The translations under genes were made by a program, and so were the position numbers. Source: Candidatus Odinarchaeota archaeon (lineage in GTDB: Archaea > Asgardarchaeota > Odinarchaeia > Odinarchaeales > Odinarchaeaceae). From it: a DNA stretch of 7,480 nucleotides. Every line of letters starts with the position of its first letter. The stretch's first letter is position 1. A model generated the notes under the pieces. That model searched no databases. It saw only the letters and a program-made list of their open reading frames with translations, and was not told the origin of the DNA. Location of the stretch: the NCBI GenBank assembly GCA_038826135.1, contig JAWBON010000057.1, forward strand, positions 1-7,480, written 5' to 3'. Below are positions 1,953 to 7,359 of the stretch, one piece after another.

Positions 1953-2849
1953 ATGATCCATTCAATATACATAATGCGGAAAACTGGTGAAAACATATAT
2001 ACGAAAAAATACGAGCAGAGCAGCATAGATGATAATCTGATTTCAGGGTTCCTAAGCGCGCTTCAAAACTTTGTTTCAGAGGTAAGCAGCGGCGATGTTA
2101 TAAGAACTATAAAAACAGGGAACGTTAAATTCATCTATAATATCATCCATGATATAATAGTTGTAGCTGTAGCAGACCAGGAAGATGATGAGAAAAAAAT
2201 ACAGGAAAAAGTTGAGAAAATCGCTGAAATATTTTATAATAAATTTAAAGTAAACCTTGAAAACTGGACAGGGGATGTAAGCCCTTTTAAACCGTTCGAA
2301 GAAGATTTAGAGGACATAGTATCAGGAACTCTAAAAGTCTCATTAATAGGATACGGTGGCGTTGGGAAAACCACCATACTGAAACTTTTAAAAAACGAGG
2401 AAATACCACTGAAACATAATCCTACAATAGCCGTAGATATAAAACCGTTTAAAGAAATAAATATCTCAGGTTTAAAGCTGATAGTATGGGATTTCGCCGG
2501 TCAGGAAAGATTTGAAAGCCTCTGGAAAATGCTGATAAAAGGGACAGATCTGATAATAGTTGTTGTCGACTCTACAATGATCAACCTGTTAAGAACAAGG
2601 AGAAAAATTATGAAAATGATAGAGGAGGAGAACCCTAAAGCAAAAGTGATAGTGATAGCTAATAAACAAGATCTTCCGAAAGCGATAAAACCGAATATAA
2701 TAGAAGACTTACTTAACGCCCCCACATATGGTTTCGTAGCTATAGATCCATCATATAGAAGAGATATTCTAAAGATAATAAACGAAAAAATAGATGAACT
2801 TTCAAAAGCAAGTAAAAAAGAGAGCAGCGTTGTCGCCAGCGCTGCATAA
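1953..2849 (+). CDS. N-terminal longin-like domain fused to a Ras-superfamily small GTPase (Asgard Arf/Rab-related)
   Basis: GTPase boxes: G1 GYGGVGKTT, G2 NPTI, G3 WDFAGQERF, G4 NKQD and a G5-like FVAI. The N-terminal ~120 aa (MIHSIYIMRKTG...LISGFLSALQNFVSEV...IVVAVAD...IAEIFYNKF) follows the beta-beta-alpha-beta-beta-beta-alpha longin pattern. Confidence 0.85.
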   Translation: MIHSIYIMRKTGENIYTKKYEQSSIDDNLISGFLSALQNFVSEVSSGDVIRTIKTGNVKFIYNIIHDIIVVAVADQEDDEKKIQEKVEKIAEIFYNKFKVNLENWTGDVSPFKPFEEDLEDIVSGTLKVSLIGYGGVGKTTILKLLKNEEIPLKHNPTIAVDIKPFKEINISGLKLIVWDFAGQERFESLWKMLIKGTDLIIVVVDSTMINLLRTRRKIMKMIEEENPKAKVIVIANKQDLPKAIKPNIIEDLLNAPTYGFVAIDPSYRRDILKIINEKIDELSKASKKESSVVASAA

Positions 2850-2861
2850 ATCATAGAAGAT

Positions 2862-3332
2862 TTATCTTCTTCTAAAACCGCGTTTACGCTGATCCCTACC
2901 GCCGTATCCTCTCTGAGACGGCGCGTTGAATGGTCTCCTAAACCGAGGCTGCTCAAATACTTGATCAGACAGGTTCTTATCAGAGTTAACTGTTCCAAAA
3001 TCCTCAGATGTAATCTCTTCAATACTACCGTATTTACCAGTATTCAACCTCATAGAACCCTTAAATAATGTAACATAACCATTGTTAATCTGATATATTC
3101 CACCGTCTTTAAGATTATCTATATCCTCATTCCATAGTGTTAAAAGTATCGACGCTGTCTCATCACCGACTAAGGCTTCAGCAACTCTAAGTGTTTCACC
3201 GGATAGTTTAGACACTACTTCTCTAGGTTCCGTCTTAGACACTACCTTAACCTTTAAATTAACATTTTTAGAGTTAGGTTTTAACTCTTCAACAGTTATA
3301 AACTGTACCACATTCTCGTTTTCTTCAGACAT
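2862..3332 (-). CDS. ssb: Single-stranded DNA-binding protein, single OB fold (crenarchaeal SSB / hSSB1-like)
   Basis: LKPNSKNVNLKVKV, VGDETASILLTLW and NGYVTLFKGSMRLNTG match the Sulfolobus SSB/hSSB1 OB fold, including the base-stacking W, Y and F positions. An Arg/Gly-rich tail follows. Confidence 0.9.
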   Translation of the reverse strand: MSEENENVVQFITVEELKPNSKNVNLKVKVVSKTEPREVVSKLSGETLRVAEALVGDETASILLTLWNEDIDNLKDGGIYQINNGYVTLFKGSMRLNTGKYGSIEEITSEDFGTVNSDKNLSDQVFEQPRFRRPFNAPSQRGYGGRDQRKRGFRRR

Positions 3333-3563: not shown

Positions 3564-4205
3564 CTACTCTTTCTCCCGCAGATCTTCCTCTGACAAGGCT
3601 TTTTTCAACTCTTCAACCTCTCGTTTAACCCTCTCACGCTTAGACAACTCCTCCGGCGTCTCACGGGGGGCTTCAGGTAGAATAGCTGTTTCTTCAACAG
3701 CAACTTCACTCTGCAATTTTTCGAATTCTCTATCAATCATTGATTCATCAGCCTCACCCAGTTCAAGAGCCTGCGCGAGCTCGCTCTGTTTAGCTTCAAT
3801 CTCACTAACTAATTCCTGCGTCTCCACTCGTGTATCAATAGCATCCTCGATTGTTAAGATTTTAGTAGCGTTAGAAAGCAGTCTATTCGCTGATTTAAGA
3901 GCCCTATTCATAGCAACCGTGTCCTCAGCTGACTGAATGCTTTCAATCGTATCCTCTAATAGATCTATCTGCTTCTGGTACGTGTTAGAAAGAGTATTAT
4001 ATTTAATCCAGCGCTTAAGCTGACTGCGAGAAGCATCATTATTCCCCTGCTTTAAATATTTTTTAGCCGTTTCCCGGCTGGAAAGCGCCTTATTATAATA
4101 GTTTCTAGTCCGGAGCGTAAACTGGTTTATAGTAGACCTGAGACTGGCTATTGTCTCATCCTTAGATTCTTTTCTTTTCGGAAAAAGTTTTCTCCAAATA
4201 CCCAC
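3564..4205 (-). CDS. ESCRT-III subunit, Vps20/32/60 (Snf7/CHMP4-6-like, ESCRT-IIIB)
   Basis: Snf7-type helical hairpin (AKKYLKQGNNDASRSQLKR...LEDTIESIQSA), acidic C-terminal half and an LPEAP proline motif. The track starts at GTG 4238, but AGGGTGG sits 5 nt before in-frame GTG 4205, giving MGIWRKLFPKRK, so 4205 is preferred. Subfamily assignment is by motif resemblance only. Confidence 0.8.
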   Translation of the reverse strand: MGIWRKLFPKRKESKDETIASLRSTINQFTLRTRNYYNKALSSRETAKKYLKQGNNDASRSQLKRWIKYNTLSNTYQKQIDLLEDTIESIQSAEDTVAMNRALKSANRLLSNATKILTIEDAIDTRVETQELVSEIEAKQSELAQALELGEADESMIDREFEKLQSEVAVEETAILPEAPRETPEELSKRERVKREVEELKKALSEEDLREKE

Positions 4206-4243
4206 ACACACCACCCTACTAAATAAATTATCATCCACCGTTT

Positions 4244-4855
4244 TTAAACGTTAGATTCCCTCATTTTCTCAATTTCTTTTTCCAACTCTGAGATTTTACC
4301 TGAAGGTTCCGGCAAAGACTTCTCAGCTTCCACCGCTATCTCCTGATCTATCTCATTTAAAACTTTTTGAACATCATCTTGCTGAATCTGACTCACTTTA
4401 GTCATGGATAATATACGTCCTTCAGCTAAATCTTTAGCCCCGCTTATATGCTTCATACTCCGATCAATTTCCTCTAATGTTTTAGTTAAATCAGGGATCC
4501 TTATCCGATTTTTAATAACACCTATAACATATTTGAGACTCCCTAGAATCTTCGACACATCGCTTACAGCCTCATTCATTTTAAGATCAACTAGAAGACC
4601 CTCTATACCGAGACGGTAAGAGTCTATTTCAACCACTGAATTTTTAAATTTAAGATAGTGATTTATATATGTTTTAGCAGCCTCCTCATCCCCCTCTAAA
4701 CGTGCTTTCTTAGCTTTCACCCTATTGTTTTTAGCTTGTTTATCAAGCCTTGAACTTTCAATTTCAAGCTTTCTACAAACGATTTCAAGTTTCCTATTCA
4801 ACTCAGATAGTTTAGGCCCTCTTAACCAAGATACGAGTCTATCCAGAAATGGCAT
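4244..4855 (-). CDS. ESCRT-III subunit, Vps2/24/46 (CHMP1-3-like, ESCRT-IIIA)
   Basis: RKLEIESSRLDKQ and AKKARLEGDEEAAKTY resemble CHMP2/3 helices 1-2. Basic N-terminal half, acidic C-terminal half and a MIM1-like terminal helix (SELEKEIEKMR). AAGGTG Shine-Dalgarno 6 nt upstream of ATG 4855; adjacent to vps4. Confidence 0.82.
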   Translation of the reverse strand: MPFLDRLVSWLRGPKLSELNRKLEIVCRKLEIESSRLDKQAKNNRVKAKKARLEGDEEAAKTYINHYLKFKNSVVEIDSYRLGIEGLLVDLKMNEAVSDVSKILGSLKYVIGVIKNRIRIPDLTKTLEEIDRSMKHISGAKDLAEGRILSMTKVSQIQQDDVQKVLNEIDQEIAVEAEKSLPEPSGKISELEKEIEKMRESNV

Positions 4856-4978: not shown

Positions 4979-6634
4979 ATGGGGTTTAATATGAGCCATG
5001 AACTATTCGAAGCTGCTTCTAAGATAGCTAAGGAGGCTGTTAAGTTAGATAAGCAGAATAACCCGCGGGAGGCGGCTGAAAAATATCTTAAAGCCGCAGA
5101 TGTTCTTATTAAACTTTCTAAAGTGACGGAAAACTCGACTCTTAAAAATATTTGCTTCAAAACAGCGGAGCAATATATTAAAAGAGCTAAAGAGCTTAGA
5201 AGAACAGCCCGAGGTAATTTCAAAGAGGATACGGGTTCTAGCGCAGATACCGGTGAAGTTGAATTAGCTGGAAATATTTCAGATATTATTTTAACAGAGA
5301 AGCCTTCTGTCCGCTGGAGTGATGTAGCCGATCTGAAGGAGGCGAAGCAGGCCCTCAGAGAAGCAGTGATACTGCCAATGCTCAGACCTGACCTTTTCAC
5401 AGGTGCAAGGGTACCTTGGCGTGGAATACTTTTATTCGGCCCACCAGGATGCGGCAAGTGCGTGTGTGAGGATGAAACCGTAATCACCGAGACAGGTGAG
5501 AGGGAGACAGCGGCGGAGATCTTCCATAAAGTGAAAAAACGGTTATTAACAGGAGGAGTCGGGGAGTATGTTTATACACCTGAGGGAGGCTTGAATCTGT
5601 TATCGGTAAATATTTCGGGAAAAATAGTGCCTGACAGGGTTTCATTCCTCTACACTAAAAAAGATGCTAAATGCCTCAGACTCAGATTAGAATACGGGGG
5701 CGATATAAAAATAGGTGAAAACCATCCACTATTATGCGCTAAAGAGAAAGGGTACACCTGGGTTAGGGGAAGCATGCTTCAACTTGGGGACCGAGTGGCG
5801 TATATTCAGAATATTAGTAAACGCCGTGAAAGATGCGTGAATAAATGGGTTAAGTTCCCGAAGATTATAGATATAGAAGTTTTTAAACAGGATATTTATG
5901 ATTTTGAAACAGTGAGAAATCACACGTATCTAATCGGGGAGGGTTTTATTTCACATAACACTTTTATTTCCAAAGCAGTGGCGAATGAGTCTAACGCGAC
6001 ATTCTTGAGCGCGGATGCTGCTACACTTGTCTCAAAATGGCTTGGTGAATCAGAGAAAGCTATCAAAAGTCTTTTCAACGCCGCCAGAGAGAACGCTCCG
6101 TCAATTATATTTATCGATGAAATTGACGCGATAGCTGGTACACGGGATGAGGATGAGGTTGGCGGTGAAAGGAGATTGAAAACACAGATGCTGATTGAAA
6201 TGGATGGTGTAAAAGAGTACAAGTCCAAGCAGCTTATGGTTTTAGGGGCTACTAATAGACCATGGGATATTGATCCAGCTTTTAGGAGAAGATTTGAAAG
6301 AAGAATATATATTCCCCTACCAGATAAAGACGCTAGAAAAGAAGTTTTCAAGTATCATTTGAAAGGAATAGATTTAGATGAAGATGTGGACTTAGATGAG
6401 TTAGCGGAGAAATCAGAGGGGTTCACTTCATCCGATATAGCTTTAATATGCCGTGAATCTGCGATGACACCTATACGGGAACTTGACGAACAGGGATTAC
6501 TTGAAAACGTTGACTGTAAACCGCGGCCTGTCAACAGGAGTGATCTAATCAGCTCGCTTACTAGGATAAAACCTGTAGTCACACCCAGCGAAATAAAGAG
6601 ATATGAAGAGTGGGCTTCCGAATACCGGAGTTGA
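4979..6634 (+). CDS. vps4: Vps4/CdvC AAA+ ATPase (MIT + AAA), intein-containing precursor
   Basis: N-terminal MIT domain (AKEAVKLDKQNNPREAAEKYLKAADVL), Walker A GPPGCGK|T split by an intein, pore loop SKWLGESEK, Walker B IIFIDEID, ATNRPW, arginine fingers AFRRRF and C-terminal helix EIKRYEEWASEY. Located between ESCRT-III and ESCRT-II genes. The true start may be ATG 4991. The spliced product is 384 aa (380 aa from 4991). Confidence 0.93.
   Translation: MGFNMSHELFEAASKIAKEAVKLDKQNNPREAAEKYLKAADVLIKLSKVTENSTLKNICFKTAEQYIKRAKELRRTARGNFKEDTGSSADTGEVELAGNISDIILTEKPSVRWSDVADLKEAKQALREAVILPMLRPDLFTGARVPWRGILLFGPPGCGKCVCEDETVITETGERETAAEIFHKVKKRLLTGGVGEYVYTPEGGLNLLSVNISGKIVPDRVSFLYTKKDAKCLRLRLEYGGDIKIGENHPLLCAKEKGYTWVRGSMLQLGDRVAYIQNISKRRERCVNKWVKFPKIIDIEVFKQDIYDFETVRNHTYLIGEGFISHNTFISKAVANESNATFLSADAATLVSKWLGESEKAIKSLFNAARENAPSIIFIDEIDAIAGTRDEDEVGGERRLKTQMLIEMDGVKEYKSKQLMVLGATNRPWDIDPAFRRRFERRIYIPLPDKDARKEVFKYHLKGIDLDEDVDLDELAEKSEGFTSSDIALICRESAMTPIRELDEQGLLENVDCKPRPVNRSDLISSLTRIKPVVTPSEIKRYEEWASEYRS
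5459..5959 (+). mobile_element. Mini-intein (167 aa, no homing endonuclease) in the Vps4 Walker A motif
   Basis: Begins with Cys (CVCEDETV, block A); block B-like IKIGENHPLL; WVRGSMLQLGDRV; block F IYDFETVRNHTY; ends GFISHN followed by Thr+1. Removing it restores GPPGCGKTFISKAVANE. The central linker is only about 14 aa, too short for a LAGLIDADG domain. Confidence 0.93.
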
Positions 6635-6660: not shown

Positions 6661-7359
6661 TTGGGTTCTAGCAGGGAGTTAGAAAAAACAAAGAGTAAAA
6701 AAGAAGAGTTAATGGAAACGATAGATAAGCTGAAAGAGGATTTAACATCTGACATGATTCAAACAAAGGAGAGTGTTTTAAAACCTCGAATGATCAATTT
6801 AAAAGAGATTGAGGAGATTAAAGAGGAGCCGTTAAGCCGTCAAATACCTTCTGAAGGATTCGATTGGGCTGTTAACCGTGAAAAATATCCTTGGATGTAT
6901 TGGATCCCGTCTAAAAACGAGGATGTTGAAAGCTGGTTGAACGAGTGGTCTGATTTCACTCTTCAATGGTTTAAAGCTAACAAGATACATATTATACCGT
7001 TCGCGGAGCTTATGGGTGAAAGACCCTTCATCTATCTTCAGAATAAGATTGATTCTCTAAAACTTATCATTGAAAAACTGATTTCTAGAAAATTCTGCTC
7101 GTATACAGGGGAAGACGGCAGGAGTATCCGAGTGTTTTGGCGCGGATACGAGGATTGGGGTGATTTAATATATAACTGGGCTTTAAAAAATGGCATGGTT
7201 GATTTCACACTTTTCGATATAATCGACTTAGAGGAGAGTACTGATAACTTTCACAGGCTGCCGCAAGAGGATTTGAAAAAAATTTTCAGTCTTCTAGTTA
7301 AAAATAAGAGAGCTGTTTGGATCAGTAAGAAAAACGCGCATATAAAAATATTATTTTAA
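6661..7359 (+). CDS. vps25: ESCRT-II subunit Vps25 with an N-terminal extension
   Basis: VFWRGYEDWGDLIYNW, FTLFDI and NFHRLPQEDL align by eye with human VPS25 (IMWRRPEEWGKLIYQW, FTLYEL, EFHGLDEATL), and YPWMY resembles the PPxY-like motifs. TTG start with GAGGGG 7 nt upstream, 26 nt after the vps4 stop; alternative ATG at 6712. Confidence 0.88.
   Translation: MGSSRELEKTKSKKEELMETIDKLKEDLTSDMIQTKESVLKPRMINLKEIEEIKEEPLSRQIPSEGFDWAVNREKYPWMYWIPSKNEDVESWLNEWSDFTLQWFKANKIHIIPFAELMGERPFIYLQNKIDSLKLIIEKLISRKFCSYTGEDGRSIRVFWRGYEDWGDLIYNWALKNGMVDFTLFDIIDLEESTDNFHRLPQEDLKKIFSLLVKNKRAVWISKKNAHIKILF

Follow-up and report, generated by a model that had tools for sequence, protein, structure and literature searches.

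Inteins have a well-known hot spot in the P-loop, where they occur in DnaB, MCM, RFC-S, RadA, LonB, V-ATPase and other proteins (PMC4760082, PMC4513877). In the P-loop inteins of RFC-S (site a), MCM (site a), DnaB (site b), LonB and SMC, the insertion lies directly after the Walker A lysine, with G-K before the junction, C...H-N at the two ends of the intein and T or S after it, and many of these elements carry LAGLIDADG. The mini-intein of RadA from the thermophilic archaeon Pyrococcus horikoshii (Pho; PDB 4E2T, 2LQM) has about 170 amino acids and no endonuclease, interrupts the P-loop of a recombinase and uses Cys1 and Thr+1; its splicing is controlled by the native exteins and temperature, and a RadA precursor whose P-loop intein could not splice was devoid of ATPase activity (PMC4513877). 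The endonuclease-free mini-intein of Thermoplasma volcanium VMA (TvoVMA, PDB 4O1S) sits in subunit A of the A/V-ATPase, a non-replicative ATPase. In the MoaA intein of Pyrococcus abyssi (Pab), a CXXC motif lies over the N-terminal junction, and the native disulfide between the extein Cys at -3 and the catalytic Cys1 blocks step 1 of splicing, according to the accounts of Callahan et al. 2011 in PMC3922620 and PMC10663303. Here, we describe a mini-intein in the P-loop of Vps4, the ESCRT ATPase, encoded in a 7,480-nucleotide stretch of DNA from Candidatus Odinarchaeota archaeon (GCA_038826135.1, contig JAWBON010000057.1; the whole stretch is called the window). We assign a probability of about 0.68 to the reading that this intein is an old, endonuclease-less and mostly vertically inherited relic, which is tolerated and self-splicing and is not a dedicated regulator.

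Translation of the Vps4 gene revealed ILLFGPPGCGK, followed by 167 residues that began with Cys-Val-Cys and ended with Ser-His-Asn, and then Thr-Phe-Ile-Ser-Lys-Ala-Val-Ala. Intein-less orthologues read GPPGCGK-TF(I/L)SKAVA, and in the alignment the insert filled one uninterrupted gap flanked by Lys160 and Thr328, both invariant. Because these orthologues aligned without a gap over the junction, the borders of the intein were exact. The parts of the gene, in window coordinates, were as follows.

4979..6634, plus strand: Vps4 precursor gene, 551 amino acids, 62.3 kDa, the longest plus-strand frame of the window
4979..5458, plus strand: N-extein, 160 amino acids, with the MIT domain, the linker and the first AAA strand through Walker A Lys160
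5438..5458, plus strand: N-terminal Walker A part GPPGCGK, with Cys158 (5450-5452) at -3 from the splice junction
5459..5959, plus strand: mini-intein, 501 nucleotides, 167 amino acids, 19.1 kDa
5960..5962, plus strand: Thr+1, which is Walker A Thr328 and also the predicted transesterification nucleophile
5960..6631, plus strand: C-extein, 224 amino acids, with the remaining AAA domain, the lid and the Vps4 C-terminal helix
6116-6121, plus strand: Walker B D380-E381, inside the C-extein

The N-extein was 73% identical to residues 3-162 and the C-extein 84% identical to residues 158-383 of the intein-less Odinarchaeum Vps4, and over the whole extein the identity to Ca. Odinarchaeum yellowstonii Vps4 was about 80%. 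A Pfam scan of the precursor showed the complete domain set of Vps4/CdvC, namely MIT (PF04212, residues 11-74), one AAA (PF00004, residues 328-447), AAA_lid_3 (PF17862, residues 469-505) and Vps4_C (PF09336, residues 514-549), with the AAA match starting only at residue 328. The listed open reading frame began at the ATG at 4979 (MGFNMSHELF); most orthologues began at the Met equivalent to 4991 (MSHELF), and the ATG at 4991 is probably the true start.

The window stretch was present in hot-spring metagenomes. Both junctions of the intein were bridged by contigs of three further hot-spring samples from two studies, and the site was occupied in four other assemblies. An assembly artefact or chimera was ruled out by the same junctions in independent assemblies and samples.

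The key residues of the intein were Cys1 (5459-5461), the block B motif G-E-N-His89 (His at 5723-5725), block F Asp148 (5900-5902) and His155 (5921-5923), and block G His166-Asn167 (5954-5959). Comparison of five distinct alleles revealed that C1, G86, H89, D148, F149, H155, H166 and N167 were invariant and that the +1 residue was Thr in all of them. The AlphaFold2 model of the intein, built on the allele alignment, had a predicted local distance difference test score (pLDDT) of 86.8 and a predicted template modelling score (pTM) of 0.81, and formed a single compact domain in which a loop of some 10 residues was poorly ordered. The top Foldseek matches of this model were TvoVMA (4O1S), TFIIB (5O9I) and Pho RadA (4E2T), with template modelling (TM) scores of 0.82-0.83 and E-values of about 1e-11 (best 5e-12). 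Altogether, 72 PDB entries matched at E <= 0.001, and the best 50 of the 72 were mostly inteins, the others being HINT-domain proteins (hedgehog autoprocessing, BIL). The model thus places the intein in the HINT fold, and these matches, like that of the allele profile to Pho RadA, speak against a chance resemblance. No LAGLIDADG, HNH or other nuclease family was found between blocks B and F in a Pfam scan of the intein. With these conserved residues and this modelled fold, the insert looks like a genuine, functional class-1 mini-intein that would be competent for splicing.

The preliminary description of this DNA, made from the letters alone, had proposed a 167-residue Cys...His-Asn/Thr mini-intein between the Walker A Lys and Thr, and the orthologue alignment, the conserved residues and the fold all confirmed it. 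Its statement that the element had no homing endonuclease agreed with the nuclease-free Pfam scan and the compact HINT model. The span given there, 5438-5962, contained the intein but also took in GPPGCGK and Thr+1, and the intein proper covers 5459-5959.

Among the solved inteins, the Pho RadA P-loop mini-intein was the best sequence match of the five-allele profile (E 6.5e-17). Its fold was similar (TM 0.83), whereas the sequence identity was only about 21%. The two differ in their hosts, a recombinase and an ESCRT ATPase, and in block B, which is T-P-S-H in RadA and G-E-N-H in Vps4; moreover, conditional splicing has been demonstrated for RadA and is at most a possibility for the Vps4 intein. 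TvoVMA was the top structural match (TM 0.82, E 5e-12) and also lacks an endonuclease, but its host is a different ATPase and the sequence identity was 21%. The inteins of RFC-S, MCM, DnaB, LonB and SMC share the insertion point with the Vps4 intein; their sequence kinship to it was weak (E 1e-7 or worse) and none of them resides in Vps4/CdvC. The Vps4 intein resembles MoaA in having a CXXC over the N-terminal junction, made of an extein Cys at -3 and the catalytic Cys1. The disulfide of MoaA has been demonstrated, whereas in Vps4 the CXXC was read from the sequence and Cys-3 is part of the conserved Vps4 P-loop.

Translation of the gene would give a precursor of about 62 kDa whose P-loop Lys and Thr are separated by 167 residues. 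Because the Mg-coordinating Thr and helix alpha1 are this far from the Lys, the AAA domain of the precursor should not bind ATP-Mg, and it can soundly be inferred that the precursor is inactive until spliced. After folding of the insert as a HINT domain, Cys1 would attack the carbonyl of Lys160, Thr328 would take over the N-extein, Asn167 would cyclise, and an O-to-N shift would restore GPPGCGK-T. The products predicted from the conserved residues are a 43.2-kDa Vps4 and a free 19.1-kDa intein. Under reducing conditions and at growth temperature, splicing most probably needs no further cue; if temperature or oxidation did affect it, this would be a by-product of intein chemistry. The source genome was an Odinarchaeia assembly of 1.26 Mb with 93% completeness, in which a second Vps4 was not found; its other AAA matches were double-AAA frames, of the CDC48 type by length, and weaker single-AAA frames. 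Since the intein-bearing gene was the single Vps4 of the genome, active Vps4 must derive from it.

The intein was rare. A scan of 400 Asgard genomes, all from the window's own phylum, was performed with the MIT region; it listed about 150 Vps4 genes among the matches, with 122 further matches beyond these, and the window gene was the single long frame among the genes listed. The intein was present in one of the seven Odinarchaeia species genomes and in one of the four species of the genus, the three other congeners being empty. In a search of 5.8 billion protein clusters, six clusters had an intein at the Lys-Thr site of Vps4; all were Vps4 proteins and all of the inteins were mini-inteins (167-179 amino acids). 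The residues flanking the junction were the same in occupied and empty alleles. Two side observations concern Vps4 of other genomes. In the scan, the Vps4 match of one Asgard genome (G133:C207:4361-4765) had an in-frame TAG in its N-terminal region. Three genomes placed in the window's class and order (G001-G003) had Vps4 proteins identical to P0017, P0020 and P0021, which NCBI names Hodarchaeota or Promethearchaeota, so that the sources differ.

An extein tree of 29 rows was calculated under a mixture model. Within the Odinarchaeia clade, P0009, which carries the intein, was basal and was followed by the empty P0010-12, then by the intein-bearing P0005, and finally by two sister groups, the intein-bearing window group and the empty Odinarchaeum yellowstonii group. 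The sixth occupied allele, P0026, was on a long branch outside the Odinarchaeia clade. Occupied and empty alleles were thus interleaved, and the approximately unbiased (AU) test rejected monophyly of the occupied ones (p 0.002, for a group named after the tree had been seen). The tree needed at least three to four state changes. The simplest history is that the intein was ancestral to Odinarchaeal Vps4 and was precisely lost at least twice, while repeated gains instead of losses are possible. Most likely, the intein is a Vps4-specific allele that has passed mostly vertically through Odinarchaeia, with precise losses in a number of sister lineages.

The search for relatives pointed to the same host protein. 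Among 1.84 billion representatives, the sole strong match of the intein was another Vps4 intein (E 8e-36), and the remaining matches were at E 9e-8 or weaker and came from mixed hosts. Several of the weak matches sat directly after the Walker A Lys of RFC, LonB-like and GTPase-like proteins, some with LAGLIDADG; the LAGLIDADG-bearing P-loop inteins among the weak relatives were in LonB-like, Rad17-like and GTPase-like P-loop proteins. When inteins were compared with one another, those of Vps4 were mutual best matches within a set drawn from the window intein's own matches. No donor site could be named from the search of the 1.84 billion representatives, and no donor was found within the same genome, where the intein protein matched itself alone at E <= 10. 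The other inteins of this genome (SMC, three in MCM, RtcB and one more) were considered as donors and were unrelated at this level. Endonuclease-bearing Vps4 alleles did not appear in a search of longer proteins, which was dominated by double-AAA CDC48, and a profile search among longer proteins returned the known mini alleles alone; both results are weak evidence of absence.

The other intein-bearing frames of the source genome were read as follows. An SMC gene (G000:C14:1368-5591, plus strand) had an intein of about 200 amino acids right after the Walker A Lys, with GPNGSGK before the junction, C...H-N at the intein ends and S after it, and this intein showed no sequence kinship with the Vps4 intein at the level of comparison used. 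A 1992-amino-acid frame (G000:C9:16453-22428, minus strand), MCM-like by sequence alone, had three H-N junctions followed by S, T or C. A 995-amino-acid frame (G000:C16:2373-5357, plus strand), RtcB-like on the same basis, and a 1276-amino-acid frame (G000:C90:1-3828, minus strand), possibly a DNA polymerase, had one intein junction each. The intein load is high for a genome of this size.

The intein diverged together with its host gene. In the closest pair (window and L037), the ratio of non-synonymous to synonymous substitution rates (dN/dS) was 0.157 for the intein and 0.073 for the extein. The G+C content of the window allele was 41.3% in the intein and 42.9% in the extein. The identities of extein and intein to the window allele were 94 and 79%, 76 and 43%, 60 and 27%, and 50 and 27% in four alleles, and over those four pairs the intein dN exceeded the extein dN by factors of 3.7, 3.0, 2.5 and 1.8. 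This pattern of sequence divergence fits a long co-residence with a host gene under purifying selection, and would not fit a recent arrival. The intein itself is under purifying selection because a splicing defect would destroy the single-copy Vps4. A pseudogene was ruled out by the open frame and the dN/dS values. One allele 98% identical to that of the window (P0003, 536 amino acids) was missing 11 residues within the MIT domain, after ...AADVLI; this gap may reflect strain variation or arise from assembly or gene calling.

Several observations weigh against a tolerated relic as the explanation. The block B motif was G-x-N-H in all five alleles instead of the usual T-x-x-H, with His89 invariant and Gly86 at the position of the Thr. 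The block B Thr assists the first splicing step and the block B His is the most conserved residue (PMC10663303), and splicing could be slow or condition-dependent given this Gly. The match to Intein_splicing (PF14890, residues 177-327; E 1.9e-7) scored 31.4 bits, under the cut-off of 35.8 bits, and the 32.9 bits of the genome scan were likewise under it; this score is outweighed by the profile and fold evidence, and linkers interrupt the PF14890 model in many inteins. C-G-K-C (C158-G-K-C161) spanned the N-terminal junction in four of the five distinct alleles and, being like the MoaA trap, would allow for genuine redox control. The AU test was applied to a group chosen once the tree was known. 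Finally, the intein has lasted without an endonuclease in lineages with Vps4 proteins only 50-60% identical, and this could also reflect a benefit.

Such a benefit would be expected if the intein were kept as a conditional protein splicing switch that gates Vps4 activity, and hence ESCRT-III turnover or division, post-translationally, a reading that we regard as unlikely. The lock could be a Cys158(-3)-Cys1 disulfide trap under oxidative stress or a thermal lock released at growth temperature as in Pho RadA, with ESCRT-III tails perhaps bound by the MIT-bearing precursor in the meantime. C-G-K-C places its two Cys as in the Pab MoaA intein, with its native Cys-3/Cys1 disulfide, and in the redox trap engineered into DnaE (PMC3922620, PMC10663303), and the nearest solved relative, Pho RadA, splices under the control of its exteins and temperature (PMC4513877). 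The block B Gly, which may slow step 1, the persistence of the intein without an endonuclease under purifying selection, and the thermophilic host with its hot-spring habitat speak for the same reading. However, Cys-3 lies in the extein and is conserved in Asgard Vps4 proteins, empty as well as occupied ones, and one occupied allele carries Thr in its place. As this Cys is part of the conserved P-loop whatever the state of the intein site, the CXXC is a by-product and not co-adapted. Purifying selection is expected of any intein in a single-copy gene. Three congeners, two sister clades and the roughly 150 other listed Asgard Vps4 genes dispense with the intein. The preliminary description had offered a hard-to-delete relic or a retained post-translational switch, and had suggested that the precursor could bind ESCRT-III as an inactive competitor. 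The switch was not supported by the sporadic distribution, in which sister clades lost the intein with the flanking extein residues unchanged, and the competitor role was left unsupported by the same evidence. The full proposal, that in this Odinarchaeia lineage conditional splicing gates the supply of active Vps4 and thereby the disassembly of ESCRT-III during remodelling or division, with a disulfide or thermal lock holding an ATPase-dead but MIT-competent precursor under oxidative or cold stress, is more doubtful still. If true, the gating benefit would explain how an intein without an endonuclease persists over deep splits.

A still-mobile element, spreading horizontally among hot-spring Asgard archaea so that the patchiness records repeated gains, is also improbable, to about the degree of the full gating proposal. 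It could move by way of unsampled endonuclease-bearing relatives, an endonuclease acting in trans, or homologous recombination of Vps4 segments, and it would account for the number of state changes on the tree, the place of P0026 outside the Odinarchaeia clade, the weak non-Vps4 relatives including LAGLIDADG-bearing P-loop inteins, and the several other inteins of the genome. Yet all six alleles are mini-inteins without an endonuclease, the intein divergence scales with the extein divergence, which is unexpected after a recent transfer, the G+C content matches that of the host, and no other host protein has a close relative. Additionally, no joint skipping 5459-5959 was seen in contigs of four hot-spring runs, which is weak evidence since contigs drop rare variants. 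Loose contig ends at 5457/5458 were considered as empty alleles and rejected, as they stemmed from ATPases of other organisms that matched the P-loop over a short stretch and with mismatches. We give hardly any credence to a dead insert or decaying gene, in which the intein no longer splices and Vps4 is non-functional. The sub-threshold Pfam score and the change of the block B Thr to Gly would agree with it, but the reading frame is uninterrupted, the His-Asn and all of the nucleophiles show no variation, dN/dS is low in both extein and intein, and the gene is the sole Vps4 of the genome in an intact syntenic ESCRT cluster. An inherited and tolerated relic is also in line with the preliminary description, which took a sporadic distribution, together with fast constitutive splicing, as the mark of a neutral parasite: the intein occurs in one of four species of the genus, one of seven of the class and none of the roughly 150 other Asgard Vps4 genes listed.

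An intein in Vps4, CdvC or archaeal ESCRT was not found in the literature covered (open-access papers and preprints), which makes this the first one noted in an ESCRT component within that literature. The type of element is ordinary, as P-loop inteins are known; the host protein is new, with a small, old and Vps4-specific allele. The preliminary description had known of no characterised Vps4/CdvC intein, and none came to light in the papers and preprints. It had also called for a search of orthologues for empty, mini and full-length alleles, by which empty and mini alleles were found and full-length ones were not seen. Its expectation of archaeal P-loop ATPase inteins at the equivalent site held for RFC, LonB and GTPase-like proteins (weak matches), SMC of the same genome and Pho RadA. 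The host belongs to an Asgard lineage whose ESCRT machinery serves as a model for eukaryotic ESCRT, and expression or modelling of Vps4 from these Odinarchaeia must reckon with splicing. Automatic annotation labels these intein-bearing proteins merely as 'AAA family ATPase'. Since the Cys-3/Cys1 pair matches the MoaA redox trap, redox control is testable. The Cys-3/Cys1 CXXC, the thermophilic host and the small size together make the intein a convenient test of the debated role of P-loop inteins as stress-responsive switches on ATP consumption, for which the naturally empty sister alleles are ready controls.

The Vps4 gene lies in an ESCRT neighbourhood, the genes of which were assigned in the window as follows.

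1953-2849, plus strand: gene for a longin-domain and Arf/Roc-like small GTPase, near the ESCRT-III genes
2862-3332, minus strand: gene for an OB-fold Ssb-like protein, near the ESCRT-III genes
3564..4238, minus strand: second ESCRT-III (Snf7 family) gene, by Pfam scan
4244..4855, minus strand: ESCRT-III (Snf7 family) gene, by Pfam scan, the divergent neighbour of Vps4
6661..7359, plus strand: gene for an ESCRT-II subunit (Vps25-like; PF05871, E 7.8e-14), directly downstream of Vps4

The product of the ESCRT-III gene at 4244..4855 is likely a substrate or partner of Vps4. The order of two Snf7 genes, Vps4 and ESCRT-II was kept in three other intein-bearing loci (L037-L039); in a fourth (L041), the downstream ESCRT-II gene was kept and Vps4 was near the end of the DNA examined. 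Beyond ESCRT-II, the related loci encoded EAP30 and a UEV-like E2, and L038 also Vps28 and ubiquitin. Of the three related loci that include upstream DNA, all kept the OB-fold gene in place and two kept the GTPase gene, which suggests that the extended ESCRT neighbourhood, including these two genes, is conserved. At 453-1811 on the minus strand, the window of this hot-spring Odinarchaeon also carried a DNA photolyase gene, which has no relation to the intein.

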